Shown: piece after piece, positions 7,244-39,336 of the stretch
Layout: each line of letters begins with the position of its first letter
Position numbering within the stretch: the first letter of the stretch is position 1
From: Escherichia phage p000v
Strand: one strand, 5' to 3'
Sequence record: NC_055781.1
DNA length: 64,000 nt
The notes under the pieces: generated by a model
What the model was told of the DNA's origin: nothing
Databases searched by the model: none
The model's input: only the letters and a program-made list of their open reading frames with translations
Made by a program: the position numbers and the translations under genes

Positions 7244-7248
7244 TAAAT

Positions 7249-7273: not shown

Positions 7274-7278
7274 TTATT

Positions 7279-9566: not shown

Positions 9567-10033
9567 ATTATGATAGATTTTATCCTTGCGATTTTGTGAA
9601 TGGCCCGGGATGCAGGGTCGTTCTTTTCGTTACGGGTTGTTTGCATAAATGCGAAGGGTGTTATAATAAATCAACATGGAATGCTAGAAATGGTATTCCA
9701 TTCACTGGTGAAACACTAGAACAATTAATTGAATGTTTGAATAATGATTATATAGAAGGATTAACTATAACCGGAGGTGACCCTCTCTATCCTGATAACC
9801 GAGATGTTATTCATTGCATTGCTCAAACAGTAAAAAATCTTTATCCCAATAAAAGCATTTGGTTGTGGACAGGATATAAGTTTGAAGATATTAAACAACT
9901 AGAAATGCTTAAATATGTTGATGTTATTATTGATGGGAAGTATGAGAAAAATCTTCCGACTAAAAAGCTGTGGCGAGGATCAGATAATCAGCGACTTTGG
10001 TCAAATACCGATGGGGTGTGGAAACATGATTAA
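9563..10033 (+). CDS. nrdG: anaerobic RNR activating enzyme NrdG (radical SAM)
   Basis: 156 aa; CLHKCEGCYN radical-SAM-type Cys motif; coupled to nrdD (ATGA overlap). Confidence 0.9.
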   Translation: MNYDRFYPCDFVNGPGCRVVLFVTGCLHKCEGCYNKSTWNARNGIPFTGETLEQLIECLNNDYIEGLTITGGDPLYPDNRDVIHCIAQTVKNLYPNKSIWLWTGYKFEDIKQLEMLKYVDVIIDGKYEKNLPTKKLWRGSDNQRLWSNTDGVWKHD

Positions 10034-10143
10034 ATTGAATTACATTATGGATACTATAAATGATATGATTTTTCGTTTTGGTCCAGAATTTTATTCGCAA
10101 TATAGTTTAATGATTATCAATGCTTAGTTAATTAAGGGTAAAT

Positions 10144-10359
10144 ATGTACAAATTTCGTAAAGGTTTAGCTGATTTTCTTACAACTGTAACGTTCTTTTTG
10201 TTTATGGCAGTTGGAGCTATTTTTCTTATTCCTTTTACTGGTGTATTTTTCGTGATTAGTTTAATTTCTCCAGAAAAGGGTTTATCCTCCAGCGAATTCA
10301 ATGAACGTTTGGACAAAATTACTAATAAACTGAATTCTGTTCTTGATAAAAAGGCTTAA
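10144..10359 (+). CDS. small membrane protein
   Basis: ORF track; hydrophobic core. Confidence 0.45.
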   Translation: MYKFRKGLADFLTTVTFFLFMAVGAIFLIPFTGVFFVISLISPEKGLSSSEFNERLDKITNKLNSVLDKKA

Positions 10360-10361
10360 TT

Positions 10362-10679
10362 ATGATTAGTTTTGAGCGGTATGTAGTAGAGAGTTGGAAT
10401 GGTTTTGATATGTTCGGTAATGACTATTATTTCTATGAATGTAGTCTGAACCCAAGCTTCTGGGCTGGACGTGAACAAGACCTCGAAGAAATCAACGCTC
10501 GTGCCGATTTGTTAGGTGAACTGCCTACGGTTTATTTTACCTTTGATGAATCCGGCTTCGTTATCCAGGTTTATTTTCCTGAAGAAAACTCTGGTGAGGA
10601 TTCTGTTAATCCTCCTTATTGGGCTTACCAAGGAATTATTTCTCGTGGAACAAAACTCGAACTTAAAGAACAAGATTGA
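10362..10679 (+). CDS. hypothetical protein
   Basis: ORF track 105 aa. Confidence 0.5.
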   Translation: MISFERYVVESWNGFDMFGNDYYFYECSLNPSFWAGREQDLEEINARADLLGELPTVYFTFDESGFVIQVYFPEENSGEDSVNPPYWAYQGIISRGTKLELKEQD

Positions 10680-10968
10680 AATTTATGGCATCCCTGAAGA
10701 AGTTGGACGTTGTCCAGGATGTTATACTGTTACAAAACTTTTAAAGGAGCTCAATGCTCCTTATACATTTTATAAAGTCCTCACTAATAATGGTAAGATT
10801 GAATATGACCGTCCTTTAATCGTATCTCTTGCTAAACGTGCAGGATTCACTTCACTTAATATTCGTTATCCTGTCATATTTTTAAATGATAAGAAACAAA
10901 AGAATATTGCAGAGTTTAAAAAGTCCTTGATTTCATTAGGATATGACTCTGATATCATAGAAGATTGA
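10645..10968 (+). CDS. glutaredoxin/NrdH-like redoxin (CPGC motif); start uncertain, GTG at 10645 proposed
   Basis: IEIYGIPEEVGRCPGCY thioredoxin-fold motif; no in-frame ATG near the domain start; GTG preceded by AGGA. Confidence 0.5.
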   Translation: MEQNSNLKNKIEIYGIPEEVGRCPGCYTVTKLLKELNAPYTFYKVLTNNGKIEYDRPLIVSLAKRAGFTSLNIRYPVIFLNDKKQKNIAEFKKSLISLGYDSDIIED

Positions 10969-21643: not shown

Positions 21644-24355
21644 ATGAAAGAATTTTACTTAACGGTTGAACAGATTGGTGATTCAATTTTTGAACGTTAC
21701 ATCGATTCTAATGGCCGTGAACGTACTCGTGAAGTAGAATATAAACCATCACTGTTTGCTCATTGTCCGGAAAGTCAGGCTACGAAATATTTTGATATCT
21801 ACGGTAAGCCGTGTACTCGTAAACTATTCGCTAACATGCGTGATGCGTCTCAATGGATTAAACGCATGGAAGATATCGGACTTGAAGCACTTGGCATGGA
21901 CGATTTCAAATTAGCGTATTTGTCTGACACTTATAACTATGAAATCAAATACGACCATACAAAAATTCGTGTGGCTAACTTCGACATCGAAGTAACATCT
22001 CCGGATGGGTTCCCTGAGCCGTCACAAGCAAAACATCCTATTGATGCTATCACCCATTATGACTCAATTGACGACAGGTTCTACGTATTTGATCTATTGA
22101 ATTCTCCATATGGTAATGTAGAAGAATGGTCTATTGAAATCGCTGCTAAGCTTCAAGAACAAGGTGGTGATGAAGTTCCATCTGAAATTATCGATAAAAT
22201 CATTTATATGCCGTTCGATAACGAAAAAGAATTGTTGATGGAATATCTCAACTTCTGGCAACAGAAAACTCCTGTCATTTTGACTGGATGGAACGTTGAG
22301 TCATTTGATATTCCATATGTGTATAACAGAATCAAGAATATTTTTGGCGAATCTACTGCGAAACGTTTATCACCACATCGTAAAACTCGTGTTAAAGTTA
22401 TCGAAAACATGTATGGTTCTCGTGAAATCATTACATTGTTCGGTATCTCTGTTCTTGATTACATTGACCTTTACAAAAAATTCTCTTTTACCAATCAACC
22501 GTCGTATTCTCTGGATTACATTTCAGAATTTGAATTGAACGTTGGTAAACTGAAATATGACGGCCCTATTTCTAAGCTTCGTGAAAGCAATCACCAACGA
22601 TATATTTCTTATAACATCATCGACGTGTATCGTGTATTGCAAATTGATGCTAAGCGCCAGTTCATCAACTTGAGTTTGGACATGGGTTATTATGCTAAGA
22701 TACAGATTCAATCTGTGTTCAGCCCAATTAAAACATGGGATGCTATTATTTTTAATAGCCTTAAAGAGCAGAACAAGGTGATTCCACAAGGTCGTTCTCA
22801 CCCGGTTCAACCTTATCCTGGCGCTTTTGTTAAGGAACCTATTCCAAATCGATACAAATATGTAATGAGTTTCGACCTTACATCTCTGTATCCAAGTATT
22901 ATTCGCCAAGTGAATATTAGCCCAGAAACAATAGCAGGAACGTTTAAAGTAGCTCCATTGCATGATTATATTAACGCAATCGCTGAACGTCCTTCAGATG
23001 TGTACAGCTGCTCTCCTAATGGCATGATGTATTATAAAGACCGTGATGGTGTAGTTCCAACTGAAATCACTAAGGTCTTTAATCAACGTAAAGAACATAA
23101 AGGTTACATGCTTGCAGCTCAACGTAATGGTGAAATAATTAAAGAGGCATTGCATAATCCTAATCTTTCTGTTGACGAACCATTAGATGTTGATTATCGT
23201 TTCGACTTCACTGATGAGATTAAAGAAAAGATTAAAAAGTTGTCTGCTAAATCTCTTAATGAAATGTTGTTCAGAGCTCAACGTACTGAAGTTGCAGGTA
23301 TGACTGCACAAATTAACCGTAAATTGCTTATCAACTCACTTTATGGTGCACTTGGAAACGTTTGGTTCCGTTATTACGATTTGCGTAATGCAACTGCAAT
23401 CACAACATTTGGTCAAATGGCTTTACAGTGGATTGAACGTAAAGTTAATGAATATCTGAATGAAGTTTGTGGTACAGAAGGTGAAGCTTTCGTTCTTTAT
23501 GGTGATACAGACTCTATTTACGTATCTGCAGATAAAATTATTGATAAGGTTGGTGAATCTAAATTCCGTGATACCAACCATTGGGTGGACTTTTTAGATA
23601 AGTTTGCACGTGAACGTATGGAACCGGCTATTGATAGAGGTTTCCGTGAAATGTGTGAATACATGAACAATAAACAACACTTAATGTTCATGGACCGAGA
23701 AGCTATCGCTGGTCCTCCGCTCGGTTCTAAAGGTATTGGTGGATTCTGGACTGGTAAGAAACGTTATGCATTAAACGTGTGGGATATGGAAGGTACTCGT
23801 TACGCTGAGCCTAAACTCAAAATCATGGGTCTAGAGACTCAGAAATCTTCGACCCCTAAAGCAGTACAGAAAGCTCTTAAAGAATGTATTCGTCGTATGC
23901 TTCAAGAAGGTGAAGAATCATTACAAGAATATTTTAAAGAGTTTGAAAAAGAATTCCGTCAATTGAATTATATTAGCATCGCGTCGGTATCTTCTGCGAA
24001 TAACATTGCTAAATATGACGTTGGTGGATTCCCTGGTCCTAAATGCCCGTTCCATATTCGTGGAATTCTGACATATAACAGAGCTATCAAAGGTAATATT
24101 GATGCTCCACAAGTTGTAGAAGGCGAAAAGGTATACGTTCTGCCTTTACGTGATGGAAACCCGTTCGGTGATAAATGTATCGCATGGCCTTCTGGTACTG
24201 AAATCACAGATTTAATTAAAGACGACGTACTTCATTGGATGGACTACACTGTTCTCCTTGAGAAGACATTTATTAAACCACTTGAAGGATTCACATCAGC
24301 AGCGAAACTCGATTACGAGAAGAAAGCATCTCTGTTCGATATGTTCGATTTTTGA
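21644..24355 (+). CDS. 43: DNA polymerase gp43 (family B)
   Basis: 903 aa; exo motifs FDIE, polymerase motifs DLTSLYPSII and YGDTDS; N-terminus MKEFYLTVEQIGDSIFERYIDSNGRERTRE matches my recollection of RB69 gp43. Confidence 0.97.
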   Translation: MKEFYLTVEQIGDSIFERYIDSNGRERTREVEYKPSLFAHCPESQATKYFDIYGKPCTRKLFANMRDASQWIKRMEDIGLEALGMDDFKLAYLSDTYNYEIKYDHTKIRVANFDIEVTSPDGFPEPSQAKHPIDAITHYDSIDDRFYVFDLLNSPYGNVEEWSIEIAAKLQEQGGDEVPSEIIDKIIYMPFDNEKELLMEYLNFWQQKTPVILTGWNVESFDIPYVYNRIKNIFGESTAKRLSPHRKTRVKVIENMYGSREIITLFGISVLDYIDLYKKFSFTNQPSYSLDYISEFELNVGKLKYDGPISKLRESNHQRYISYNIIDVYRVLQIDAKRQFINLSLDMGYYAKIQIQSVFSPIKTWDAIIFNSLKEQNKVIPQGRSHPVQPYPGAFVKEPIPNRYKYVMSFDLTSLYPSIIRQVNISPETIAGTFKVAPLHDYINAIAERPSDVYSCSPNGMMYYKDRDGVVPTEITKVFNQRKEHKGYMLAAQRNGEIIKEALHNPNLSVDEPLDVDYRFDFTDEIKEKIKKLSAKSLNEMLFRAQRTEVAGMTAQINRKLLINSLYGALGNVWFRYYDLRNATAITTFGQMALQWIERKVNEYLNEVCGTEGEAFVLYGDTDSIYVSADKIIDKVGESKFRDTNHWVDFLDKFARERMEPAIDRGFREMCEYMNNKQHLMFMDREAIAGPPLGSKGIGGFWTGKKRYALNVWDMEGTRYAEPKLKIMGLETQKSSTPKAVQKALKECIRRMLQEGEESLQEYFKEFEKEFRQLNYISIASVSSANNIAKYDVGGFPGPKCPFHIRGILTYNRAIKGNIDAPQVVEGEKVYVLPLRDGNPFGDKCIAWPSGTEITDLIKDDVLHWMDYTVLLEKTFIKPLEGFTSAAKLDYEKKASLFDMFDF

Positions 24356-24395
24356 TATAATGCCATGGACGGTAAACTAATTAAATGAGAGAAAT

Positions 24396-25031
24396 ATGAA
24401 AACTACACCAATCACTATCGCTATTGACGCAATCGTAAAACAAGCTTCATCTCTTGCCACTATGGCTAAAGTAATTAGTCAAAACTCTGCCCGATATAAT
24501 GCTATTCTTGAAACTCTTCGTCGCCCTGGACTGAGTAATTATGAAAGCCGAGTAATTATTACAGGTGTTGGTAAGAACGCTAATATCGCAACTAAAGCTT
24601 CCGAGACTTTTGCTTCACTAGGTATTCCTAGCATGTATTTGAACACCGGGCATTATTCTCATGGCGACGCAGGATTTATTGCACCTAATGATGTATTAGT
24701 TCACATCAGTCGTTCTGGTAAGACTGAAGAAATGATAGGTGTTGCTAAACATCTTCGTATGATTCGTCCTCAGGTTAAACAGATTCTGTTACATTGTAAC
24801 CCTGACATTCCGCAAGAATACGAAGCTCTTTTTGATTATACGTTCTGTACAGGCATCGCGGTAGAGGTTGATGAGAATTCTCTGGCTCCGACCATGTCCA
24901 CTACATTGTTGTTAGCGCTTATCGATACGTTTGCTATCAACCTTTCGTCTGAACGTGGATTTACCTCTAATGACTTCCTTAAGTTCCACCCTGGTGGTGC
25001 ACTAGGTGCCATGTTACGAGGCGAACAATGA
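24396..25031 (+). CDS. SIS-domain sugar-phosphate isomerase, KdsD/KpsF-like arabinose-5-phosphate isomerase without CBS domains
   Basis: ITGVGKNANIATKASETFASLGIPS, SHGDAGFIAPNDVLVHISRSGKTEE and HPGGALG resemble the API SIS domain. Confidence 0.8.
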   Translation: MKTTPITIAIDAIVKQASSLATMAKVISQNSARYNAILETLRRPGLSNYESRVIITGVGKNANIATKASETFASLGIPSMYLNTGHYSHGDAGFIAPNDVLVHISRSGKTEEMIGVAKHLRMIRPQVKQILLHCNPDIPQEYEALFDYTFCTGIAVEVDENSLAPTMSTTLLLALIDTFAINLSSERGFTSNDFLKFHPGGALGAMLRGEQ

Positions 25032-25171
25032 AAGCAATAACAATAGGACTTTTACTATTGATGCTTGTCATGACTATCTACTGGAGCTTAACGGCTCCAG
25101 TAATGATTCCGACTCTTATAATCGGATGGATTATGATTGGACTACAAGCAAAGTATGAATGCTTTAACTAG
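25028..25171 (+). CDS. small hydrophobic peptide (47 aa, two predicted TM helices)
   Basis: ATGA overlap with upstream stop; below ORF-track size cutoff. Confidence 0.35.
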   Translation: MKAITIGLLLLMLVMTIYWSLTAPVMIPTLIIGWIMIGLQAKYECFN

Positions 25172-25184
25172 AATAGTGTACAAT
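25158..25184 (+). promoter_or_regulatory. candidate middle promoter (MotA box TGCTTTA, -10 TACAAT)
   Basis: TGCTTTA at 25160-25166, 12 nt spacer, TACAAT at 25179-25184. Confidence 0.4.
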
Positions 25185-25212
25185 ACACCTACTTACCAAT
25201 GAGGACTTCAAC

Positions 25213-26898
25213 ATGAAAAAAGCTGTTATTCTTGGTGCTGGACTGGCAACTCGTTTGTATCCAATAACGCACCATATTCCTAAGGTGCTTGTTAACTATA
25301 AACAAGACACTATTCTGAGCAATTTGTATACAATTTATTCTGACCTTGGCGCAGATGAAATTATTGTAGTAGTTCATTCAAAATTTGCTGAAACTGTTCG
25401 AGCTTATTGCGAGCAAGAAGGGTTCAATGTGACTATTCGTACAGTTGATGAAGCGTATGGTTCTGCTTATGCTCTTGCTAAATTATACAAAGATTTAGAT
25501 GGCCATAACGTAATTGTTAACTGGTGTGATATTATTCCTGACTTTGGTTCATGGTCTTGGAATGTTAACGCAATCTATGTTAAGGGTGATGAATGTCGAT
25601 ATAATTTCGATGGTGAAAATATCACTAACGTAGGTTCAACAGGTGGTAATGTTGTAGGAATTTATCAGTTCAAAGACTGGGAATTCTACATGGGTTCTAC
25701 TGATGAGGAAATTCACGAATACTGCAAAGGTCGTGATTTCGTAGAATTCCTTTACGGCAGTGCATTCAATAAATCAGAGCTTATGAATCTAATTGATTTA
25801 GGTGATATGCCTAAACTTGAAAAGGCTCATGAAGTTCGTGAACTGAATCGTAGTTTTAATGCAGTTGAAATTGGCGAAGAAACTGTAACTAAATTCGCGT
25901 TAACCGAACAAGGTCGAGCTCTTCAAAAAGATGAGATTTCATGGTATTTGAAAGTGAAATCAGATTCAGTTCCTCAGTTAGTTTCGGTAAATGAAAATAA
26001 TTTTGAAATGGAACGTATTAAAGGTAAGCCGGCATTTGAATATATTAAATCCAAATCAAGTCTTGCTCGTCCACAAATTGTTGATGCAATTTTAGATGCA
26101 CTGAAATTCAGCACGGACACTTATTTTGTAAGTCCTGAAACTGTTCGCCGTGATTTCACTAAAGAGTTCTATACGAAAGTTATTGATCGTTGTGAAAGCA
26201 TTCAGCCATTGATTGATTCATTTGGTAAAATCACACGTGTGAACTACACTAAGATTGGACGTCTGAAGCCAATGTTGAAACAAGCTTTAGAACATCTTAT
26301 TCGTTATCATAACCGTTCTCAGGGACAGTACTCTGTTATTCATGGTGACCCGAACTTCAGTAATACTATGATTACCGATAACGGCGAAGTCAAGTTTATC
26401 GACCCTCGTGGATATTTTGGTGAAACCAAGATTTACGGGCCAAAATTGTATGATGAAGCTAAAGTGCTTTATGCTGTTTCAGGTTATGATGAATTCAATG
26501 CTAATCCGACCTGGGGTCAGTTTACTATTGATGAAACAACTTGTAATGTGACTATTAACATCAATCCATTAGTTTACAAATATGGAAAGATGAGTTCGTT
26601 TAACGAGTATCATCATTTGGCAGTAGCAATTATCTGGATTGCATTAGGTGGTTATTTCAAGAATAATCCACTTAAAGCGGTTGCCGCATATTATAAAGGT
26701 ATGGAACTTCTGACTAAGCAATTACGTAACATGGGCCGTGTACTTCAAGACGGCTCTATTAGTTATGACGTAGCAGAACCTGTAACGGCTACTCTGATTA
26801 CAAAAAATCCTGGTAAATGGGTACTAACTGATAAAGAAACTGGTGTTTCCTATCGTCCAATCGGCGGCGATATCACTCATCAATGGGAACGAATCTAA
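25213..26898 (+). CDS. bifunctional sugar-1-phosphate nucleotidyltransferase / APH-like sugar kinase
   Basis: N-terminus ILGAGLATRLYPITHHIPKVLV is an NTP-transferase signature; C-terminal HGDPNFSNTMITDNGEVKFIDPRGYFG is an APH/choline-kinase catalytic motif. Confidence 0.8.
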   Translation: MKKAVILGAGLATRLYPITHHIPKVLVNYKQDTILSNLYTIYSDLGADEIIVVVHSKFAETVRAYCEQEGFNVTIRTVDEAYGSAYALAKLYKDLDGHNVIVNWCDIIPDFGSWSWNVNAIYVKGDECRYNFDGENITNVGSTGGNVVGIYQFKDWEFYMGSTDEEIHEYCKGRDFVEFLYGSAFNKSELMNLIDLGDMPKLEKAHEVRELNRSFNAVEIGEETVTKFALTEQGRALQKDEISWYLKVKSDSVPQLVSVNENNFEMERIKGKPAFEYIKSKSSLARPQIVDAILDALKFSTDTYFVSPETVRRDFTKEFYTKVIDRCESIQPLIDSFGKITRVNYTKIGRLKPMLKQALEHLIRYHNRSQGQYSVIHGDPNFSNTMITDNGEVKFIDPRGYFGETKIYGPKLYDEAKVLYAVSGYDEFNANPTWGQFTIDETTCNVTININPLVYKYGKMSSFNEYHHLAVAIIWIALGGYFKNNPLKAVAAYYKGMELLTKQLRNMGRVLQDGSISYDVAEPVTATLITKNPGKWVLTDKETGVSYRPIGGDITHQWERI

Positions 26899-27284
26899 TG
26901 CACCGTGTAGAAAACATGCTTAATCTTTGTTTTGATGTCGATGATTGTATAACAGAGTGGAATAACAATCGTGATTACGTGAACTTCAAACCAGACGTCG
27001 AAATGGTGTCTGCCATTAATGCCCTGTATGATGCAGGGCATACCATAACGCTTTACACTGCCCGTGGTATGAAGTCGGTAGGTCCTGGTCGTATAGCAAT
27101 TGACATTCTCCCAAGTCTGATTCAGAACTTGGAAAACATTGGTTTGAAGTACCATAATTTGCTAACACATAAACCAGTATATGATTGGATTATCGACGAC
27201 AAAGCTATGCGTCCTGACGAATTCAAAGCTCTTATGAATAAAGGCGAATTCGAAACATTTAAATCATATAAACCAAATCTATAA
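26883..27284 (+). CDS. HAD-superfamily phosphatase (small, capless)
   Basis: Motif I FDVDDCIT, motif II TLYTAR, motif III/IV K..(n)..IIDDKA; alternative ATG at 26898. Confidence 0.7.
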   Translation: MGTNLMHRVENMLNLCFDVDDCITEWNNNRDYVNFKPDVEMVSAINALYDAGHTITLYTARGMKSVGPGRIAIDILPSLIQNLENIGLKYHNLLTHKPVYDWIIDDKAMRPDEFKALMNKGEFETFKSYKPNL

Positions 27285-27341
27285 TAATTTAAGTAAGACC
27301 TGCAAAAACCATCGCATCAATTAACGCGAGATGCAAAAAAA

Positions 27342-28502
27342 ATGAATACTTTTAAAATCGGAACGAATTTTGATTTAGCTCTTCTTGATAAAATCGTAGA
27401 GCTCAATAAAACCTATCCTAATAGCTTGATAAACGAAGTATATGGCTCTACAAGAGAAATGGCTTTTGTAGCAGCCAGACCTGATTTTAGGCTTCCTGAC
27501 GTTGACAAAAAGATGTTAGAAGACTACGTTAAACGTTGTAACGAATTAGGTATTTGCTTTAACTATACACTCAACACGATAAATCCTGGTTCAAAAAGAG
27601 AACTAGTTGAGTGGAAGAAGAAAGCTATTCAGGATTATGTTCAGTATCTTTGGTCAATAGGCGTATGGCGTATTACTATCGCTAACCCTGTTGTTATGGA
27701 AATTGTTCGTGAAGTCAATAAAGATATTGAGATTGAAGTTTCAACAATTCTACATGTCGATGCGGTAACTCAAATCAAATACTTACATGACCAATATAAC
27801 ATCAAAAAGGTCTGTTGCGGAATTCATAAGAACCGTTCAGTTTCTTTCCTGAAGCGTGCAGCAGAGTTTTGCAATAAGAACAATATAATATTTGAAGTTC
27901 TTGTAAATGAGTTCTGTTCTAATGCTGGTAAAGGGTATACAACACATTGTAGTTATCGTGACTCTTGCTATATTTTCCATAGTACTGATGTTACCGCTGA
28001 TGATGCTAAATCCTTAAATGGATATCCTATGCAGCACTGTATTAAAGCTCGTGATACAGACCCATTTAACTGGTTGAGAACTCGTTTTGTTCGTCCTCAA
28101 GATTTGAAACTTTATAATGATATTGGTATCACTCAATTCAAAGTTTCAGGACGTACAGGTAGCACAGACTACATTTTGAAAGTTCTTGAAGCATACGCTT
28201 CTGAAAAGTTTGAAGGTAATTTGTTAGAACTGTGGAAGCCTTTAGAGACTATTTTCACTCTTGAAAATGAGACTGAGTTTTCACATACAGTAAATATTGA
28301 AACCTCTTTGTTAGATGGCTTTTTAGAAAAAAGGTGGTTCAGACATCCAGATTTTGATTGTGCTAATGAAATCTGTGGGTCAACGTGTACATATTGTGAA
28401 AGGTATTATAAACGTCAATTATCTAAAAACGGGTTAGCAGAAAACTCCATATCTATTATTGATATAACTAACTCTGATGACGCTTTGAGGTACCCGGAAT
28501 GA
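27342..28502 (+). CDS. Cys-rich protein of unknown function (possible metal or Fe-S enzyme)
   Basis: 386 aa; Cys clusters CC, C-x10-C-x6-C and C-x4-C-x3-C-x2-C; no recognisable family by eye. Confidence 0.6.
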   Translation: MNTFKIGTNFDLALLDKIVELNKTYPNSLINEVYGSTREMAFVAARPDFRLPDVDKKMLEDYVKRCNELGICFNYTLNTINPGSKRELVEWKKKAIQDYVQYLWSIGVWRITIANPVVMEIVREVNKDIEIEVSTILHVDAVTQIKYLHDQYNIKKVCCGIHKNRSVSFLKRAAEFCNKNNIIFEVLVNEFCSNAGKGYTTHCSYRDSCYIFHSTDVTADDAKSLNGYPMQHCIKARDTDPFNWLRTRFVRPQDLKLYNDIGITQFKVSGRTGSTDYILKVLEAYASEKFEGNLLELWKPLETIFTLENETEFSHTVNIETSLLDGFLEKRWFRHPDFDCANEICGSTCTYCERYYKRQLSKNGLAENSISIIDITNSDDALRYPE

Positions 28503-28738
28503 TTTCTAGAAAAAGTTTTAATTATAAACTTAACGAAGAGATTTTGACTATGAAACTGAACACTAACGAACAAATTCTTAAAAAGGCCCTTATGGGCCTG
28601 TTTGAAACCAAAGCGGCTAAAGTGATTAAAGAACCTGTTCAATTGGAATACTACGCTGATGCATTTCTTCATAGTGTTCTTGGAAGTATCGATGCTGAAG
28701 CTTTACGTTATATCAACATTGTCAAGAAATTCAAATAA
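28499..28738 (+). CDS. hypothetical protein
   Basis: ATGA overlap with upstream stop. Confidence 0.4.
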   Translation: MISRKSFNYKLNEEILTMKLNTNEQILKKALMGLFETKAAKVIKEPVQLEYYADAFLHSVLGSIDAEALRYINIVKKFK

Positions 28739-28761
28739 GCTTTACGAATTGAGTATATAAT
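28738..28761 (+). promoter_or_regulatory. candidate middle promoter (MotA box AGCTTTAC, -10 TATAAT)
   Basis: GCTTTA, 10 nt spacer, TATAAT upstream of gene 42. Confidence 0.4.
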
Positions 28762-28780
28762 AAATTGTATTGAGGTAAAC

Positions 28781-29497
28781 ATGGGAAAACATAACACAAT
28801 GAAATATATCAAAGCCGCAGATTTTCAAACCGCATTTAAAGCAGTCAATCGTGAAATTTTAGAAAACCCGGAATTCGTAACTGATTCTCGTATTGGACGT
28901 TGTAATGAAATTGGGTCTATGACAGTAGTTGTTGACACTCCATCATCATTCAAAATGACCGACCCACGTATTAACCGCATCTCTTATGAATATGCCGAAG
29001 ACTTCTGGAAGTTTATGATTTCTGGTGGTACCAACGCAGAAGAAGCGTTTAAGGCATATCCTAATGTCGCTAAATTTATTTCTAAACCAAAATCAGATGT
29101 TTTGCCGGCGAACTTCAACACTTTCTATGGTCCTCGCATTGCGGCCCAATTACCAACTCTTCTAAAAGAACTTAAAGAGAAGCCTAACTCCCGAAGAGTT
29201 GTGTTCCAAATTCTAGAAAGTTCTGATCAGGCTTTGCTTGATTCGGACGAAACACTTGAATATCCATGTACTGACTCAGTAACTTATTATATTCGTGATG
29301 GTAAGCTTTATACCCACTGTCATATGCGTTCTCAGAACTGTGCTGTTGTTATGCAGTTGGATTTTTATCTCCAAGGAAAATTACTTCATTATATCGCTAA
29401 CGAATGCGGTGTAGAAGTTGGTGATTATACTCATACCATGGTAAGTGCCCATGTGTTTGAACGTGATTTTGATTATGTTAAAGGATTCCTTGACTAA
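28781..29497 (+). CDS. 42: thymidylate-synthase-fold pyrimidine hydroxymethylase (dCMP hydroxymethylase gp42)
   Basis: TS-like motifs NSRRVV, catalytic Cys in EYPCTDS, HMRSQN; synteny with T4 gene 42. Confidence 0.75.
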   Translation: MGKHNTMKYIKAADFQTAFKAVNREILENPEFVTDSRIGRCNEIGSMTVVVDTPSSFKMTDPRINRISYEYAEDFWKFMISGGTNAEEAFKAYPNVAKFISKPKSDVLPANFNTFYGPRIAAQLPTLLKELKEKPNSRRVVFQILESSDQALLDSDETLEYPCTDSVTYYIRDGKLYTHCHMRSQNCAVVMQLDFYLQGKLLHYIANECGVEVGDYTHTMVSAHVFERDFDYVKGFLD

Positions 29498-30396
29498 TGG
29501 CTATTTTCCGCGTACCAATCTTGAGTATGCGGTCTTATGAAACTGGACAGTATGCTATCCTTAAGGATGGCAACTTCCAACTTCATTTGCACCGTGCTAA
29601 TCCGGGTGATGTGATTACATATCCACGTAATGCATCTGATATTAAAGAATGCGAACGTCTTTTCCCAGAATTTAAGTTTGTTCCATTATGGTATAAAGAT
29701 AACGCGTATAACACTCGTAAATATTTCTGGACTGAAAATGAATTTGTGGTTGATTCATTAATTGATTATTATGATTGTGATTTTCTAATCACAGATATCA
29801 CTGGTTATGGTGGCGCTTTTGATGTGGAATTCAATTTCAATATCACTGCAGACCCTAATAAACCACGTTTTTATATTGATGAATTCTTAAAAACCGACAT
29901 GTTGTCTGTTAATCGTTCACTTCAAACTACTGTGTTGAATGAACGTCAAAAAGAAGTGCTGGTTAACGCAGGTGCAGATGGTAATAAGATTATCGTAACG
30001 CAGAAAGTTATACGTCCTTCCATCATGCAGCGTCTTGTAGGTGATTTGGCTCCTATTCATCTAGATGGTATTTTTCATCCATTTCGAATTAGTGACCCAT
30101 GTTATCGTTTTGAACAAGTGGTTGAATGTGCAATTCAATTAGGTCAACCGCTTTATATAACCGATCCAAATAATAGCTTCGACAGAAATAAGTATCCTGA
30201 AGAAGCGCTGATTCGAATTTTTAAACCAACTAAAACTGAGTACTATCAAATTCTTAAAGGACGTCCGAAAATTCAATATTTCGAAAATCCTGAAGAAGTA
30301 TTCCATCCAGGTCTTGGTGAGTTCATCTACTTTAATGCTTTAATTTCTTCGCCGTATAATATACCTAAATACGAAGATGTCGTAATCGAGGAATAA
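29497..30396 (+). CDS. hypothetical protein occupying the T4 b-gt position
   Basis: 299 aa; coupled start TAATG; no recognisable motif. Confidence 0.55.
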   Translation: MAIFRVPILSMRSYETGQYAILKDGNFQLHLHRANPGDVITYPRNASDIKECERLFPEFKFVPLWYKDNAYNTRKYFWTENEFVVDSLIDYYDCDFLITDITGYGGAFDVEFNFNITADPNKPRFYIDEFLKTDMLSVNRSLQTTVLNERQKEVLVNAGADGNKIIVTQKVIRPSIMQRLVGDLAPIHLDGIFHPFRISDPCYRFEQVVECAIQLGQPLYITDPNNSFDRNKYPEEALIRIFKPTKTEYYQILKGRPKIQYFENPEEVFHPGLGEFIYFNALISSPYNIPKYEDVVIEE

Positions 30397-30397
30397 A

Positions 30398-30946
30398 ATG
30401 GCTAAAATTATTTTAGTAGATGGCCCGGATAATGCCGGTAAAACAACTTTCATTAATGACATAATGGAAATTAGTGAAAGATATGTAAAGATTGATTTCC
30501 CTAAACGAACAGTTGATGGACGTTTCGATGTTAAGTCTCGAAATGAAGTTGGCTGTTTCGAAACGATGTTGAATTATTTAGACCCTACTAAGATTTATCT
30601 GTTAGACCGTGGATATATTAGTAACTGGGTTTATGGACGTATTCGACAAGATGCGGACTCGATTCTTGACGTTTATGAACAGGACTATGTTCGTCTTTGC
30701 CAAAACCATGATGTGTTCACAATTATTTTAACACGTAACGAAATGACTGAAAGTTTTGAAGACGACCTTATTACTTTGTCTTCATTCGGTTTTAATACAG
30801 TCATTTCACATTTTGAAGAGTTTGCAATTCATAACAAAATCCAAACATATCAATTACTTAATCATGATGGTGCTAACAAAGTTATAGGATTTAATGCAAG
30901 CGAACGTAATGGTTTGATTACAGAAATCATCAAATGGGCTCGTTAA
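30398..30946 (+). CDS. P-loop kinase-like protein
   Basis: Walker A GPDNAGKTT and LLDRGY motif reminiscent of nucleoside/nucleotide kinases. Confidence 0.55.
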   Translation: MAKIILVDGPDNAGKTTFINDIMEISERYVKIDFPKRTVDGRFDVKSRNEVGCFETMLNYLDPTKIYLLDRGYISNWVYGRIRQDADSILDVYEQDYVRLCQNHDVFTIILTRNEMTESFEDDLITLSSFGFNTVISHFEEFAIHNKIQTYQLLNHDGANKVIGFNASERNGLITEIIKWAR

Positions 30947-31045
30947 GAGCCTGTTTAAAGTTTTAAATGCTGTATAACCCTTAGTATATAATCGTTTTAT
31001 CTTTTAAACATGAGTAAAATATAATGATGCCTATGGAAAAATACA

Positions 31046-32218
31046 ATGTCTGATTTAAAATCTCGTCTGATTAAAGCTTCTACTTCTAAAATGACTGCAG
31101 ACTTGACTAAGTCTAAGCTGTTTAATAATCGTGATGAAGTCCCTACTCGTATTCCGATGTTGAATATTGCACTAGGTGGTGCTCTGAATGCAGGATTGCA
31201 ATCAGGCTTGACTATTTTTGCTGCACCTTCTAAACACTTTAAAACGCTGTTTGGACTAACTATGGTTGCAGCGTATATGAAGAAATATAAAGATGCAATC
31301 TGTTTGTTCTATGACTCAGAATTTGGTGCTTCAGAATCTTATTTTCGTTCAATGGGTGTTGATTTAGACCGTGTAGTTCATACACCAATTCAGTCCGTCG
31401 AACAACTTAAAGTTGATATGACTAATCAGCTTGACGCGATTGAACGCGGTGATAAAGTTATTATCTTTATCGATTCAATCGGTAATACTGCATCTAAGAA
31501 AGAAACCGAAGATGCATTGAATGAGAAAGTCGTAGGTGATATGTCTCGTGCTAAGGCACTTAAATCTCTGTTCCGTATTGTGACCCCGTATCTGACTATT
31601 AAAGATATTCCGTGTGTTGCAATCAACCATACAGCAATGGAAATCGGCGGACTATATCCTAAAGAGATTATGGGTGGTGGTACAGGTATTCTTTATTCTG
31701 CCAACACGGTATTTTTTATCTCTAAACGTCAGGTTAAAGAAGGTACAGAATTGACCGGTTATGACTTCACGTTGAAAGCAGAAAAATCTCGTACAGTTAA
31801 AGAGAAATCTACTTTCCCGATCACGGTTAATTTCGATGGTGGTATCGACCCATTCAGTGGCTTGCTAGAAATGGCAACTGAAATCGGTTTTGTGGTTAAG
31901 CCTAAAGCTGGTTGGTATGCTCGTGAATTCCTTGACGAAGAAACAGGTGAAATGATTCGTGAAGAAAAATCATGGCGTGCTAAAGCTACTGATTGTGTAG
32001 AATTCTGGGGACCTTTGTTTAAACACAAACCTTTCCGTGATGCGATTGAAATGAAATATAAGCTAGGCGCTATCTCGTCTATTAAAGAAGTTGATGACGC
32101 TGTTAACGACCTTATTAATTGCAAAGCAACAACTAAAGTTCCGGTTAAAGCTTCTGATGCTCCGTCTGCAGCAGATATAGAAAACGACCTTGACGAAATG
32201 GAAGATTTCGATGAATAA
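31046..32218 (+). CDS. uvsX: RecA-like recombinase UvsX
   Basis: MSDLKSRLIKASTSK...GPSKHFKT...KSWRAKATDCVEFWGPLFKH matches recalled T4 UvsX. Confidence 0.95.
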   Translation: MSDLKSRLIKASTSKMTADLTKSKLFNNRDEVPTRIPMLNIALGGALNAGLQSGLTIFAAPSKHFKTLFGLTMVAAYMKKYKDAICLFYDSEFGASESYFRSMGVDLDRVVHTPIQSVEQLKVDMTNQLDAIERGDKVIIFIDSIGNTASKKETEDALNEKVVGDMSRAKALKSLFRIVTPYLTIKDIPCVAINHTAMEIGGLYPKEIMGGGTGILYSANTVFFISKRQVKEGTELTGYDFTLKAEKSRTVKEKSTFPITVNFDGGIDPFSGLLEMATEIGFVVKPKAGWYAREFLDEETGEMIREEKSWRAKATDCVEFWGPLFKHKPFRDAIEMKYKLGAISSIKEVDDAVNDLINCKATTKVPVKASDAPSAADIENDLDEMEDFDE

Positions 32219-32552
32219 TCTCGATGATTTAAATCTAGAAATCGTTGATGAATCCCCTTCTTCGGAAGGGGAAGACATTCGCAAAGAACGAGTGTTTAAT
32301 GAATCTCTTAAAATTATCCGTTCAGCAATGGAAAATGTCATTCAAGAGATTCTGATTACACTTGAAGATGGTTCTCATCATATAGTCTATATTACAAAAC
32401 TAGACTGGGTTGATGGTAAAATCGTAATGGACTTTGCAGTTCTTGACCAGGACAGAAAAGCAGAACTTGCACCACATGTTGAAAAATGTGTTACAATGCA
32501 AGTACAACAAGCTTTTAATGAACGAACCAAGAAAAAATTTAAATTCTTTTAA
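32211..32552 (+). CDS. 40: gp40-like protein (position of T4 gene 40)
   Basis: Synteny between uvsX and 41; ATG overlaps uvsX 3' end. Confidence 0.6.
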   Translation: MNNLDDLNLEIVDESPSSEGEDIRKERVFNESLKIIRSAMENVIQEILITLEDGSHHIVYITKLDWVDGKIVMDFAVLDQDRKAELAPHVEKCVTMQVQQAFNERTKKKFKFF

Positions 32553-32561
32553 GGAGTTATC

Positions 32562-34004
32562 GTGGTAGAAATTATTTTGTCTCATCTAGTATACGACCAG
32601 GCTTATTTTTCTAAGGTCTGGCCTTATATGGATTCTGATTACTTTGAGCGTGGACCGGCAAAAAACGTCTTTAAAATTATAAAGAGCCACGTTAACGAAT
32701 ATAATGCAATGCCATCTATCAATGCATTAAAGGTGGCTTTAGATAACAGTTCTTTAACTGAAGCTGAATATAAAGGAACTTCAGACCTAATTGAAAAATT
32801 GGCTGATACTCCTGAAGACCATGAATGGCTGGTTAAAGAAACTGAGAAATATGTCCAGCAAAAAGCGATGTATAATGCTACATCCAAAATCATTGAGATT
32901 CAGTCTAATGCTGAACTACCTCCAGAACAACGTAACAAGAAAATGCCTGACGTAGGAGCTATTCCTGATATTATGCGTCAAGCGCTTTCAATTTCGTTCG
33001 ATAGTTATGTTGGACATGACTGGATGGAAGACTACGAAGCACGCTGGCTTTCTTATCTAAATAAAGCACGTAAGGTCCCGTTCAAATTAAACATTTTGAA
33101 TAAAATCACCAAAGGTGGTGCCGAAACCGGTACACTAAACGTTTTAATGGCGGGTGTTAACGTTGGTAAATCTTTAGGCCTTTGTTCACTTGCTGCAGAT
33201 TATCTTCAAACAGGTCATAATGTTCTTTATATTTCCATGGAAATGGCTGAAGAAGTTTGTGCTAAGCGTATAGATGCAAACATGCTTGACGTATCACTTG
33301 ATGATATCGATGATGGTAACGTATCTTATGCTGAATATAAAGCCAAGATGGAAAAATGGCGTTCAAAAACAACATTAGGACGTTTAGTAGTTAAACAGTA
33401 TCCTACCGGTGGAGCTAATGCTAATACATTCCGTGCATTGCTTAATGAGTTAAAACTCAAGAAGAACTTTGTGCCGTCTGTAATCATGGTTGATTACTTA
33501 GGTATTTGTGGGTCTTGTCGTATCAGAGTTTACACTGAAAATAGCTACACATTAGTTAAAGCTATCGCAGAAGAACTTCGTGCATTAGCAGTAGAATCTG
33601 AAACAGTTCTATGGACTGCTGCTCAGGTAGGACGTGCAGCATGGGATGCTTCAGACATGAACATGAGTGATATCGCAGAATCAGCAGGTTTACCAGCAAC
33701 GGCAGATTTCATGTTGGCTGTAATTGAAACCGAAGAACTTGCACAAGCTGAACAACAACTTATCAAACAAATCAAATCACGATATGGTGATAAGAATAAG
33801 TGGAATAAATTCCTGATGGGTGTACGTAAAGGCAATCAGAAATGGGTTGAGATTGAGCAAGAAGGCATGAACACACCTAACACAGTAAATGAAAACGCAG
33901 GTGCTCAGATGCGTCAAGCAGAGGTGAATCGTACGGAACGCGTAGGTAAAGCCAAAGCAACACGTGCTGACCTAGATAGCTTAGCCAACGAGTTAAAATT
34001 TTAA
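32562..34004 (+). CDS. 41: replicative helicase gp41 (DnaB family), GTG start
   Basis: MVEIILSHL...Walker A GVNVGKS; matches recalled T4 gp41; RBS AAGGAG 5 nt upstream of GTG. Confidence 0.93.
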   Translation: MVEIILSHLVYDQAYFSKVWPYMDSDYFERGPAKNVFKIIKSHVNEYNAMPSINALKVALDNSSLTEAEYKGTSDLIEKLADTPEDHEWLVKETEKYVQQKAMYNATSKIIEIQSNAELPPEQRNKKMPDVGAIPDIMRQALSISFDSYVGHDWMEDYEARWLSYLNKARKVPFKLNILNKITKGGAETGTLNVLMAGVNVGKSLGLCSLAADYLQTGHNVLYISMEMAEEVCAKRIDANMLDVSLDDIDDGNVSYAEYKAKMEKWRSKTTLGRLVVKQYPTGGANANTFRALLNELKLKKNFVPSVIMVDYLGICGSCRIRVYTENSYTLVKAIAEELRALAVESETVLWTAAQVGRAAWDASDMNMSDIAESAGLPATADFMLAVIETEELAQAEQQLIKQIKSRYGDKNKWNKFLMGVRKGNQKWVEIEQEGMNTPNTVNENAGAQMRQAEVNRTERVGKAKATRADLDSLANELKF

Positions 34005-35096: not shown

Positions 35097-35465
35097 ATGA
35101 AAAAATTAATCGCTTTAGCAATGGTATTTGGATTAACAGGATGTGGTGCTCATGGCTTTATCCCTAATAACGTTGGCCAATTGATTTATAACCCGAATGT
35201 TAAACAGTACAACCAACCTAAAGTTGAAGTGGAAGACCCGGTTACTGTAGGTAATCGAATGATTCAAGCTGATGCCCATGCTCAACGTTATCGTGATTCT
35301 GATACTGTAGCATTGTCAAAAGAACAACGCGTTAAAGAACATTGCTTACAGGCTACTGAAATCGCATTCATTCGCTATGTTGAAACAACTGGCAAAGAGC
35401 CTTCCCAGAAACAAATCGCGAATAACTACGTCCAGTGTATTGAACGTTTAAACAAATTTAATTAA
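35097..35465 (+). CDS. putative lipoprotein
   Basis: Signal peptide with lipobox LTGC. Confidence 0.55.
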   Translation: MKKLIALAMVFGLTGCGAHGFIPNNVGQLIYNPNVKQYNQPKVEVEDPVTVGNRMIQADAHAQRYRDSDTVALSKEQRVKEHCLQATEIAFIRYVETTGKEPSQKQIANNYVQCIERLNKFN

Positions 35466-35526
35466 TTGGTTTACACCAAAGTTAAACCAAGATACTATAA
35501 ACATAACAAATCAAGAGGAAATTAAC

Positions 35527-35775
35527 ATGGAATTATTCGTGGCTAGTTCAGTAGCAGTTTTAATCGCAGGTATTGGTTCAATCATCATTTACATGTTGCC
35601 TTGGGTAATCGCACTTATTCGTGGCACAAAAAGCACAACAGCAATCTTCTTTGTATCTTTACTCTTTAACTGGACGATGATTGGTTGGATTGGAACTTTA
35701 ATTTGGTCTATCGTTGCCGAAAAGAAATCTGCTCAGCAGACTCAACAAGTAATTATTATTCGCGAAAAAGAATAA
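35527..35775 (+). CDS. membrane protein (two TM segments)
   Basis: Hydrophobic throughout. Confidence 0.5.
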   Translation: MELFVASSVAVLIAGIGSIIIYMLPWVIALIRGTKSTTAIFFVSLLFNWTMIGWIGTLIWSIVAEKKSAQQTQQVIIIREKE

Positions 35776-38814: not shown

Positions 38815-39336
38815 ATGGCACACTTTAACGAATGTTCACAACTTATTTCTGGTGTTGATAAAGCAGAAGAAGCTTATTTTAATGCTCTGATTCACGAAGA
38901 TAAAGACCCACTGCAGGTAATGCTTGATATGCAGAAATCTTTACAGGTTCGTCTGGCAAATGACAAGCCTGAACATAACAAACATCCTGATGAATTGGCC
39001 ACTGCTGGTGATGTTGTTGATTGGCTGCGTAATCAGAAAGATTATATTGATGATGAATTTCGTGAACTGCTGACTTCACTTGGTGGTATGAGCAACGGTG
39101 AAAAAGCCGCCAGCAGTGTATGGAAGCCGTGGAAGGCACAACACGCTGAATATCGAAATCGTCGTATCGATGAACTGTCTCCTGAAGACCAGCTCGAAAT
39201 TAAATTCGAAATGATTGATATTCTGCACTTCGTTCTGAACATGTTCCAAGGTCTGGGTCTTTCCGCTGAAGAAATCTTTAAACTTTACTACTTGAAAAAC
39301 CAACACAACTTTGAACGTCAGGATAATGGTTACTGA
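38815..39336 (+). CDS. 56: dCTPase/dUTPase gp56 (MazG-like)
   Basis: MAHFNEC...DPLQVMLDMQ...ETAGDVV.W...EDQLEIKFE..D..HFVLNMF matches recalled T4 gp56. Confidence 0.9.
   Translation: MAHFNECSQLISGVDKAEEAYFNALIHEDKDPLQVMLDMQKSLQVRLANDKPEHNKHPDELATAGDVVDWLRNQKDYIDDEFRELLTSLGGMSNGEKAASSVWKPWKAQHAEYRNRRIDELSPEDQLEIKFEMIDILHFVLNMFQGLGLSAEEIFKLYYLKNQHNFERQDNGY

Follow-up and report, generated by a model that had tools for sequence, protein, structure and literature searches.

A predicted RB69-type 5-hydroxy-dCMP synthase at the gene 42 position of Escherichia phage p000v

The window analysed here, a stretch of 64,000 nucleotides from Escherichia phage p000v (NC_055781.1), contains a block of 6.8 kb (~24203-31045) without nucleotide similarity to T4, which occupies the place of imm.1-imm-42-beta-gt-segA in that phage. 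ORF 28781-29497 lies within this island. A tblastn comparison of the whole window with the T4 genome returned no T4 match for any of the other seven island ORFs, which are 91-99% identical to RB69p045-p055. These genes, together with two located elsewhere in the window, are as follows:

24396-25031, + strand: arabinose-5-phosphate isomerase (SIS domain, KpsF/GutQ family), ortholog of RB69p055 with 96% identity (Pfam SIS; NCBIfam kpsF, E=8.5e-32); role from the literature
25213-26898, + strand: bifunctional sugar kinase/NDP-sugar pyrophosphorylase, with an N-terminal NTP_transferase and a C-terminal kinase-like domain (Pfam), 99% identical to RB69 over the aligned part
26883-27284, + strand: HAD-type sugar-phosphate phosphatase, 98% identical to RB69p051 (NCBIfam capsule biosynthesis phosphatase, E=1.9e-13), analogue of HY126 AfhF; role from the literature
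27342-28502, + strand: U32-family putative Fe-S protein, corresponding to RB69p050 (Pfam Peptidase_U32, 42.2 bits against a cut-off of 22.4)
28499-28738, + strand: 79-aa ORF, 91% identical to RB69ORF049c, its start overlapping the U32 stop codon
28781-29497, + strand: candidate 5-hydroxy-dCMP (5hodCMP) synthase, RB69 gp48 ortholog, with key residues Cys163 (nucleophile), Glu160, Asn186 and Asp194
29497-30396, + strand: putative DNA arabinosyltransferase 1, 97% identical to RB69p046:47 over the aligned part; assignment from the literature
30398-30946, + strand: P-loop nucleotide kinase, thymidylate-kinase-like, 98% identical to RB69p045, with a weak dTMP-kinase P-loop match; assignment from the literature
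38815-39336, + strand: gp56 dCTPase/dUTPase homolog, 71.7% identical to T4 gp56; pathway role from literature on the RB69p028 dCTPase
51255-52355, + strand: putative DNA beta-arabinosyltransferase 2, 99% identical to RB69p003 (363/366), adjoining rIIA.1 and rIIA; assignment from the literature

Two of these genes are single ORFs in the window but are split in the RB69 reference record: the kinase/pyrophosphorylase, represented there by RB69p052 and p053, and arabinosyltransferase 1, whose start and the stop codon of the synthase share 1 nt and whose RB69p046:47 split is attributed in the literature to a sequencing error in RB69. The HY126 analogue of the kinase/pyrophosphorylase, AfhE, has been assigned to UDP-arabinose synthesis. 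Island GC content (0.34-0.40) equals that of the flanks and thus gives no compositional evidence for recent horizontal acquisition. Scanning 24300-31100 for Sigma-70 promoters and terminators was uninformative: chance alone would give 26 promoter-like sites, and 19 were returned. By eye, a MotA-box-like GCTTTA and a TATAAT are present upstream of ORF 28781-29497. Essentiality data for the island genes are absent from a transposon-mutagenesis preprint.

ORF 28781-29497 encodes a protein of 238 aa, with GAGG ahead of its ATG start and TAA as its stop codon. It lies between gene 43 and uvsX, and the first-pass annotation was right to put it at the T4 gene 42 position. The thymidylate-synthase-family fold, catalytic Cys and arginine motifs described at that stage are likewise present: the protein matches Pfam Thymidylat_synt (PF00303; E=1.9e-15, 57.2 bits, cut-off 24.3) over residues 122-235 only, carries the motifs E160-Y-P-C163-T-D-S, S137-R-R and R183-S184, and matches 114 thymidylate-synthase-family sequences in a search of PDB sequences.

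The protein is identical to RB69 gp48 (RB69p048, NP_861738.1) at 235 of 238 positions (99%); the three differences, N85D, V107A and T126A, all lie outside the active-site positions examined. It is also 97% identical to the protein in PDB entries 9IQC, 9IR2 and 9IQU, which is probably the homolog from E. coli phage HY126. Experiments have characterised RB69 gp48 as a 5-hydroxy-dCMP synthase (Lee et al., NAR 2026; He et al., Nat Chem Biol 2026). The RB69 enzyme converts dCMP to 5-hydroxy-dCMP with oxygen derived from 18O2, co-purifies with FMN, which is released from the purified protein, and leads to 5hodC in E. coli DNA when co-expressed with a phage dNMP kinase, whereas T4 gp42 assayed in parallel gave 5hmdC (PMC13326640). 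The same source refers to He et al. for work with the HY126 homolog that comprises reconstitution in vitro and a crystal structure with bound flavin, and an independent paper reports that Mosigvirus employs a 5-hodCMP synthase. An earlier study of RB69, from 2018, had reported arabosyl-hydroxymethylcytosine (PMC6024577), and papers from 2025-2026 revise the RB69 base to an ether-linked 5-hydroxycytosine. With only three of 238 residues differing, and with the function transferred from RB69 gp48, ORF 28781-29497 very probably encodes the Mosigvirus (RB69-type) 5-hydroxy-2'-deoxycytidylate synthase. As of 2025-2026 this gene is already known and its biology is settled.

Four positions that we take to belong to the folate site of ThyA (E. 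coli E58, W80, D169 and G173) are all replaced in the window protein and all retained in T4 and PS2 gp42. E58 is replaced by F and G173 by V, each in 120 of 120 relatives, and the W80 position holds A in one alignment and V in another. At the D169 position the window protein has Asn186, shared by all 120 close relatives, whereas T4 gp42, PS2 gp42 and ThyA have D; this Asn was proposed as a diagnostic residue by Lee et al. (2026). Cys163 (E. coli C146) and Asp194 (E. coli N177) are invariant in the same number of relatives (120/120), and Glu160 (E. coli L143), Arg138/139 and Arg183-Ser184 are kept in the window protein. Searched exhaustively, a set of 1.84 billion representative proteins yielded 142 scorable matches, among which 94 have the hydroxylase signature of the window protein and 44 a hydroxymethylase signature, with no intermediates between the two. 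E58, D169 and G173 are retained in all 44 hydroxymethylase-type representatives. The hydroxylase-type representatives have N (69), S (13), C (5), D (5) or H (2) at position 169; given this minority, Asn does not occur throughout the clade, and its part in the mechanism is putative. The signature nevertheless separates two cytosine-modifying classes cleanly and is usable for annotation, with F at E. coli position 58, a non-Gly residue at 173, Glu at 143 and, in most members, Asn at 169, as against E, G, D and D. Public records still carry the labels 'thymidylate synthase', 'dCMP hydroxymethylase' and 'hypothetical', and a reader relying on T4 would mis-assign the base.

The first-pass annotation had called the protein a hydroxymethylase more diverged from T4 than the neighbouring replication genes, and had explained this by faster divergence. 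The stronger divergence holds: a BLASTP alignment with T4 gp42 gave 25% identity over 218 aa (53.5 bits, E=3e-13) instead of high identity, and the tblastn comparison gave 24.8% for this ORF against 61% for gp43, 79% for gp45, 77% for gp44, 83% for gp46, 68% for UvsX, 85% for gp41 and 79% for Dda. Divergence relative to the neighbours is therefore real and large, although the near-identity to T4 ascribed to gp45, UvsX, gp41 and Dda was overstated, the actual values being 68-85%. The accompanying difference in sugar modification was also correctly anticipated, arabinose being used instead of glucose. It is, however, very improbable that the gene encodes a true dCMP hydroxymethylase orthologous to T4 gp42 and unusually fast through co-evolution with a different glycosyltransferase. 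Such a reading could draw on the gene 43-uvsX position, fold, catalytic Cys and cytosine-specifying Asp common to both proteins, on the many GenBank records that name the gene dCMP hydroxymethylase, and on the 2018 RB69 paper, which assumed a hydroxymethylase (PMC6024577). Yet no rate acceleration is seen within the family, where synthase identity is 78-82% (Dhaka-, Kanagawa- and Winklervirus), 71% (Shewanella phage) and 69% (Acinetobacter phage), equalling that of gp43 (83, 79, 79 and 62% for Dhaka-, Kanagawa-, Winklervirus and Acinetobacter phages, with no value for the Shewanella phage) and gp41 (68, 70, 68, 68 and 58% for the five in that order). With 59 bits against E. coli ThyA and 54 bits against T4 gp42, the window protein is also no nearer to the latter, and it falls below the ortholog level represented by T4 and PS2 gp42 (59% identity, 291 bits). 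Within-family conservation and this equidistance, together with the replacement of the T4 imm.1-imm-42-beta-gt-segA segment by the island, indicate that the gene 42 position is held by a different superfamily clade and not by a fast-evolving gp42. This clade relation was judged from the scores of pairwise comparisons, the within-family rates and the two-way split of the signature, named outgroups being too few for a formal phylogeny. The hydroxymethylase label itself gives way to the loss of the four residues that T4 gp42 shares with ThyA, and to the different products of the 99% identical RB69 protein and T4 gp42 in the same assay.

Thymidylate synthase models are the top Pfam and NCBIfam matches, and 'thymidylate synthase' is both the commonest annotation in phage records and the molecule name in the PDB. 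That the protein is an ordinary thymidylate synthase converting dUMP to dTMP is nonetheless extremely improbable: it stays far under the cut-off of every NCBIfam thymidylate synthase equivalog (best 68.7 against 174.55; others about 50 against 108-427), the uracil-specifying Asn177 is replaced by Asp, the protein lacks the last ~40 residues of ThyA as well as E58, W80, D169 and G173, and the published product of RB69 gp48 is 5hodC (PMC13326640). Chemistry may differ across the hydroxylase-type clade, as suggested by the variation at position 169 and by the fusion of a histidine phosphatase domain to some members. There is only a slight chance that this particular member has a product or cofactor unlike that of RB69 gp48, such as another C5 substituent, considering its three substitutions outside the active-site positions examined and downstream pathway genes that are all 91-99% identical to those of RB69.

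As an RB69-type 5hodCMP synthase, the protein would be the entry enzyme of an arabinosyl-5-hydroxycytosine pathway. The gp56 homolog would supply dCMP to the synthase. Conservation and the established chemistry of ThyA and T4 gp42 suggest that Cys163 attacks C6 of dCMP and that Asp194 gives the preference for cytosine over uracil. O2 and a loosely bound flavin would serve to place a hydroxyl directly on C5, replacing one-carbon donation from methylenetetrahydrofolate, as found in the literature for the 99% identical protein. The resulting 5hodCMP would be phosphorylated and incorporated in place of dC, and the two transferases (29497-30396 and 51255-52355) could arabinosylate the 5-OH on DNA using UDP-arabinose that the enzymes encoded at 24396-27284 (isomerase, kinase/pyrophosphorylase, phosphatase) would produce, according to literature assignments for RB69, HY126 and DLP3.

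The U32 gene lies ~280 bp upstream of the synthase and is better conserved than any other island gene (87, 84 and 79% across genera). Ten of its Cys are conserved in at least 98 of 101 distant and 19 of 19 close relatives, including a C-terminal CX4CX3CX2C; in place of the canonical CX6CX15CX3C found in TrhP and RlhA it has C192..C203-x5-C209. The protein is 17-22% identical to E. coli UbiU, UbiV, TrhP and RlhA. Membership in a characterised U32 subfamily was not detected with NCBIfam, where only the UbiU model matched (18.5 bits against a cut-off of 440), and phmmer against PDB sequences returned nothing at E<=1. A bona fide chorismate mutase comes after U32 in 51 phage records other than this one; the gene immediately downstream in Entb_45, LC53 and Thanatos-2 is of the Pfam CM_2 type, and in the Shewanella phage Thanatos-2 the pair moves as a unit. 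The 79-aa ORF sits in the position of the chorismate mutase of other genera. It has no Pfam or NCBIfam match even at E<=10, hhalign against a phage chorismate mutase profile gave a probability of 0.1, and three phage chorismate mutases used as tblastn queries on the whole window gave nothing better than E=0.1; a chorismate mutase assignment for this ORF was therefore rejected.

U32 was seen only in phages of facultative anaerobes, and is absent from the Acinetobacter and Pseudomonas phage regions examined, though the synthase is present there. In the one Acinetobacter phage examined, nrdD/nrdG are absent from the syntenic site. The synthase is also present and U32 absent in the E. coli Dhakavirus WG01. 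On large phage-like contigs, relatives of U32 at ~55% identity have genes for nucleotide metabolism and replication as neighbours, with no thymidylate-synthase-fold gene nearby.

Characterised U32 hydroxylases are all prephenate-dependent according to the literature, and RlhA is reported to produce 5-hydroxycytidine (rRNA ho5C2501). By analogy, we tentatively raise the possibility, which we regard as somewhat doubtful, that the U32 protein provides a second, O2-independent and prephenate-dependent route to 5-hydroxy-(d)cytidylate, allowing full cytosine replacement in anaerobic infection. Under such conditions the flavin/O2 synthase could not work, and U32 would draw oxygen from prephenate. 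In favour of this stand the chorismate mutase next to U32 in other phages, the strong conservation of U32, its distribution among hosts and the gene context of its ~55% identical relatives; the WG01 case and the lack of a recognisable chorismate mutase in the window are caveats. TrhO/TrhP, UbiIHF/UbiUV and the phage's own NrdAB/NrdDG may be parallels for such paired routes. If this proposal is correct, U32 would explain how these phages keep full DNA modification in the anoxic gut, and DNA precursors would join the substrates of prephenate-dependent hydroxylation. No discussion of the U32 and chorismate mutase lead was found in the literature covered, though Mahler et al. 2025 and He et al. 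2026 may already treat U32; the Thanatos paper does not mention it.

Among known systems, the O2- and prephenate-dependent pairs TrhO/TrhP (tRNA ho5U) and UbiI/H/F with UbiU/V (ubiquinone) resemble the window in that it encodes a probable flavin/O2 hydroxylase of pyrimidine C5 close to a U32 gene. A further likeness is that chorismate mutase, the prephenate maker, follows U32 in other genera; it was undetected in the window. The phage U32 protein, known here from its sequence, differs from TrhP and RlhA in Cys pattern.

The synthase is alike in length, Cys/Glu/Asn/Asp signature and gene neighbourhood to the 5hodCMP synthases RB69 gp48, the HY126 homolog and DLP3 gp80, and its three substitutions relative to RB69 are conservative. 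MilA (CMP 5-hydroxymethylase, PDB 5B6D/5JNH) shows full-length similarity to it (E=2.7e-11) and canonical ThyA core similarity (E~1e-11 to 1e-13), and both outscore T4 gp42, which is outside the 60 best PDB matches. MilA and ThyA are, however, folate-dependent one-carbon transferases of 264-340 aa, and their C-terminal region is absent from the 238-aa window protein. T4 gp42 shares with the window protein the thymidylate-synthase fold, the catalytic Cys (T4 C148, window C163), the Asp (T4 D179, window D194), an acidic residue at E. coli L143, the map position and the first committed step in cytosine replacement. Unlike the window protein, which has F, A/V, N and V at the positions of E. coli E58, W80, D169 and G173, T4 gp42 keeps E60, W, D171 and G. 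T4 gp42 is folate-dependent and forms a 5-CH2OH product, whereas the window-type enzyme, according to the literature, uses flavin and O2 to form 5-OH (PMC13326640), which makes it a striking example of hydroxylation by flavin and O2 on the fold of a folate enzyme.

The open reading frame at 28781..29497 is the already known 5-hydroxy-dCMP (5hodCMP) synthase, since its product is identical at 235 of 238 positions to RB69 gp48 (RB69ORF048c, NP_861738.1), whose chemistry is published, and matches the solved structures 9IQC, 9IR2 and 9IQU at 97% identity along its entire length. The Pfam thymidylate-synthase domain covers residues 122-235 only (E=1.9e-15), and the motifs quoted in the first-pass annotation were recovered as E160-Y-P-C163-T-D-S, S137-R-R and R183-S184. 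The DNA shares 99% identity or more with numerous Mosigvirus (RB69-like) coliphages, e.g. CEV1, p000y, JS09 and APCEc01, which places the origin of the window in an RB69-type rather than a T4-type phage. GenBank phage labels for this gene are inconsistent and mostly wrong in function ('thymidylate synthase', 'dCMP hydroxymethylase', 'deoxycytidylate 5-hydroxymethyltransferase', 'hypothetical protein'), and the 97% identical PDB entries are likewise named 'Thymidylate synthase'.

The DNA of RB69 and Acinetobacter phage DLP3 carries mono- and poly-arabinosylated 5-hydroxycytosine, with arabinose ether-linked to C5 (Lee et al., NAR 2026, PMC13326640), a result that overturned a 2018 report of arabinosyl-hydroxymethylcytosine (PMC6024577). 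Co-expressed with a phage dNMP kinase, RB69 gp48 yields 5-hydroxy-dC (5hodC) in E. coli DNA with oxygen derived from 18O2, and once purified it has a yellow colour and gives off FMN; the same assay run with T4 gp42 yields 5-hydroxymethyl-dC (5hmdC) (PMC13326640). A flavin-bound crystal structure and in vitro reconstitution are credited to work on the HY126 phage homolog (He et al., Nat Chem Biol 2026, as cited in PMC13326640), and a second, independent paper also states that the genus Mosigvirus uses a 5hodCMP synthase (PMC13390438).

Arabinosylation genes in the window (roles are literature assignments; family matches come from domain searches)
24396-25031, +, arabinose-5-phosphate isomerase (RB69 p055)
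25213-26898, +, bifunctional kinase/pyrophosphorylase (RB69 p052:53)
26883-27284, +, HAD phosphatase (RB69 p051)
27342-28502, +, Peptidase_U32-family putative Fe-S protein, here U32 protein (RB69 p050)
28499-28738, +, 79-aa ORF (RB69 p049)
28781-29497, +, 5hodCMP synthase, 238 aa, GAGG ribosome-binding site ahead (RB69 p048)
29497-30396, +, putative arabinosyltransferase 1 (RB69 p046:47)
30398-30946, +, nucleotide kinase (RB69 p045)
51255-52355, +, putative arabinosyltransferase 2 (99% identical to RB69 p003)

The genes of the island share 91-99% identity with RB69, lie on the plus strand and are tightly packed: the 79-aa ORF begins within the U32 stop, and the transferase start likewise overlaps the stop of the synthase. 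Both 25213-26898 and 29497-30396 are single intact ORFs where the RB69 reference record has p052/p053 and p046/p047, in agreement with the published view that these splits are sequencing errors (PMC13326640). Gene 39 and arabinosyltransferase 2 are directly adjacent in RB69, whereas in the window they are separated by a 265-aa HNH homing-endonuclease-like ORF (50415-51212; 45% identical to T4 MobB over 116 aa).

Searching every window ORF against the T4 genome (tblastn) revealed the synthase as a strong outlier at 24.8% identity, as the first-pass annotation had suspected, although the replication neighbours, four of which (gp45, UvsX, gp41 and Dda) it called near-identical to T4, are instead clear orthologs at 61-85%: gp43 61%, UvsX 68%, gp62 74%, gp44 77%, gp45 79%, Dda 79%, gp46 83% and gp41 85%. 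By BLASTP, 218 aa of the synthase align with T4 gp42 at 25% identity (53.5 bits). None of the other seven ORFs in its block of eight (24396..30946) has any T4 match, and no nucleotide alignment with T4 was obtained between 24202 and 31046, where the counterpart position in T4 carries imm.1-imm-42-beta-gt-segA. Block and flanks have the same GC content. Homologs of imm.1 and imm (32% and 64% identical to T4) occur at 35097-35775, downstream of gene 41 as annotated in RB69, rather than beside gene 42 as in T4.

The earlier reading of a hydroxymethylase diverging faster alongside a sugar other than that of T4 holds for the sugar but not for the enzyme, as the product of RB69 gp48 is 5hodC, nor for the rate. 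We compared window proteins with those of other-genus phages carrying the same synthase family.

Percentage identity between window proteins and their counterparts in other-genus phages (order: WG01, Dhakavirus; Entb_45, Kanagawavirus; LC53, Winklervirus; Thanatos-2, Shewanella; Konradin, Acinetobacter; - no value)
Synthase: 78, 82, 80, 71, 69
gp43: 83, 79, 79, -, 62
gp41: 68, 70, 68, 68, 58
UvsX: 89, 88, 70, 68, -

Judged by these identities, the synthase evolves at the slow pace of the replication core, which refutes faster divergence. Instead, a different superfamily clade fills the gene-42 slot, arriving or leaving together with its sugar pathway.

Pairwise BLASTP scores for the synthase were 54 bits against T4 gp42, 63 against gp42 of Serratia phage PS2 and 59 against E. 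coli ThyA, compared with 228-350 within its own family; T4 gp42 scored 49 bits against ThyA and 291 against PS2 gp42. These scores mark the synthase family, gp42 and ThyA as three roughly equidistant clades, each internally tight. We aligned the synthase with the same three proteins, then with 120 relatives (Ec, E. coli ThyA numbering). It keeps Cys163 (Ec C146), Arg138/139, Arg183-Ser184, Tyr116 and His224, has Asp194 at Ec N177, a cytosine-type residue, and Glu160 at Ec L143. Asn186, at Ec D169, is Asn in 120/120 relatives and Asp in both gp42 proteins and ThyA, and this position is the published diagnostic residue (Lee et al., PMC13326640), where the changes at Ec58, Ec80 and Ec173 are not stressed. 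Ec E58 is replaced by Phe and Ec G173 by Val in 120/120 relatives, and Ec W80 by a small residue in the synthase (Ala or Val by alignment), whereas T4 gp42 retains E, W and G at these positions. We take E58, W80, D169 and G173 to line the ThyA folate site, and their joint loss is consistent with a change of cofactor.

When 1.84 billion representative proteins were searched exhaustively with phmmer, 2717 matched at E<=1e-3, and 142 of the best 150 were scored. Among these, cytosine-type proteins of this fold split cleanly at Ec 58, 143, 169 and 173. The hydroxylase type (n=94) lacks Glu at Ec58 and Gly at Ec173, with Glu at Ec143 in 91 and N (69), S (13), C (5), D (5) or H (2) at Ec169; the hydroxymethylase type (n=44) has Glu at Ec58, Gly at Ec173, Asp at Ec143 in 42 and Asp at Ec169 in all. 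No intermediates were found among the 142, with one further sequence unclassed (gap). Hydroxymethylase-type representatives begin no higher than about rank 75 (78.7 bits), and T4 gp42 (29.9 bits, phmmer) falls outside the best 150 matches. S, C, H or D replaces the diagnostic Asn169 in 25 hydroxylase-type representatives, and four of this type (P0244, P0246, P0248, P0250; 427-463 aa) carry a C-terminal histidine-phosphatase (His_Phos_1) fusion.

Elsewhere in the window, gp40 and gp41 (32211-34004) are 83% and 85% identical to T4 but only 41-46% and 58-70% to other 5-hydroxycytosine phages. The modification island has the opposite affinity, and the genome is thus mosaic with respect to its modification system. 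The nrdD gene (7241-9583) has 88-94% nucleotide identity to T4, against a median of 74% for all aligned segments, and its protein is 99% identical over 425 aa. The alignment stops precisely where T4 nrdD carries its intron, and the window nrdD lacks that intron together with I-TevII; the high identity could be due either to strong constraint or to a conversion tract around the homing site.

Within the island, the U32 protein upstream of the synthase shows the highest conservation (87/84/79% across genera). RB69p050 is listed only as a 'sugar or heterocycle reductase', and U32, prephenate and RlhA are not mentioned in the text of Lee et al. (PMC13326640). A tblastn search recovered 220 phage records, each with 80% identity or more, from phages of Escherichia, Klebsiella, Shigella, Serratia, Proteus, Yersinia, Enterobacter, Providencia, Edwardsiella, Pectobacterium and Shewanella. 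Acinetobacter is absent from the ten commonest names among them, and the other 12 records, in 7 name categories, are plausibly accounted for by genera already seen; the synthase query, by comparison, matches 65 Acinetobacter phage records. U32 was not found near the synthase in the regions read of Acinetobacter phage Konradin and Pseudomonas phage PspYZU05, is missing from E. coli Dhakavirus WG01 and does not appear in the published DLP3 gene list (PMC13326640). Among the records and regions examined, all its carriers are phages of facultative anaerobes. As a control on this oxygen logic, the 62 kb read of Konradin holds gp55-NrdH-gp49 in synteny and no nrdD or nrdG; the window carries gp49-nrdD-nrdG-nrdH (7279-10968).

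A Pfam CM_2 chorismate mutase lies directly 3' of U32 in Entb_45 (40.9 bits), LC53 (44.6) and Thanatos-2 (32.8; cut-off 27), and in 51 phage records overall (loci compared with window 27342-28502: L011:4989-6397, L010:4992-6502, L012:5001-6391). In Thanatos-2 the pair sits elsewhere in the cluster, indicating that it moves as a unit. We tentatively propose U32 as a candidate O2-independent, prephenate-dependent C5 hydroxylase that might back up the O2-dependent synthase, a role we consider possible though somewhat improbable. Against this role, the 79-aa ORF occupies in Mosigvirus the position that the chorismate mutase has in other genera but shows no recognisable similarity to that enzyme, prephenate would need to come from host PheA and TyrA, and WG01, with a synthase and no U32, stands as a counter-example. 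In length the ORF equals the Entb_45 mutase; it likewise overlaps the U32 stop, and is 91% identical to RB69 where its neighbours are 96-99%.

U32 relatives of about 55% identity (L018:8001-9086, L019:8001-9098, L020:8001-9086) occur on phage-like contigs of 80-466 kb (GC 25-27% in two) beside dCMP deaminase, UDG-like, nucleotide kinase, radical SAM/SPASM and DNA polymerase III alpha genes; no thymidylate-synthase-fold gene or chorismate mutase was found within 8 kb. In L020, a DAHP/KDO8P synthase family gene is next to the U32 homolog, with a separate His_Phos_1 gene nearby.

Among characterised U32-family proteins, RlhA forms 5-hydroxycytidine 2501 in 23S rRNA and requires prephenate and Fe-S clusters (PMC5727448); TrhP performs prephenate-dependent tRNA ho5U formation alongside the O2-dependent TrhO (PMC6599085); and in anaerobic ubiquinone synthesis UbiU/V use prephenate as oxygen donor, their aerobic counterparts being flavin monooxygenases (PMC10990095). 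Nearly all of 120 relatives share ten cysteines of the phage U32 protein, among them a C-terminal CX4CX3CX2C; its Cys spacing departs from the canonical one of TrhP and RlhA.
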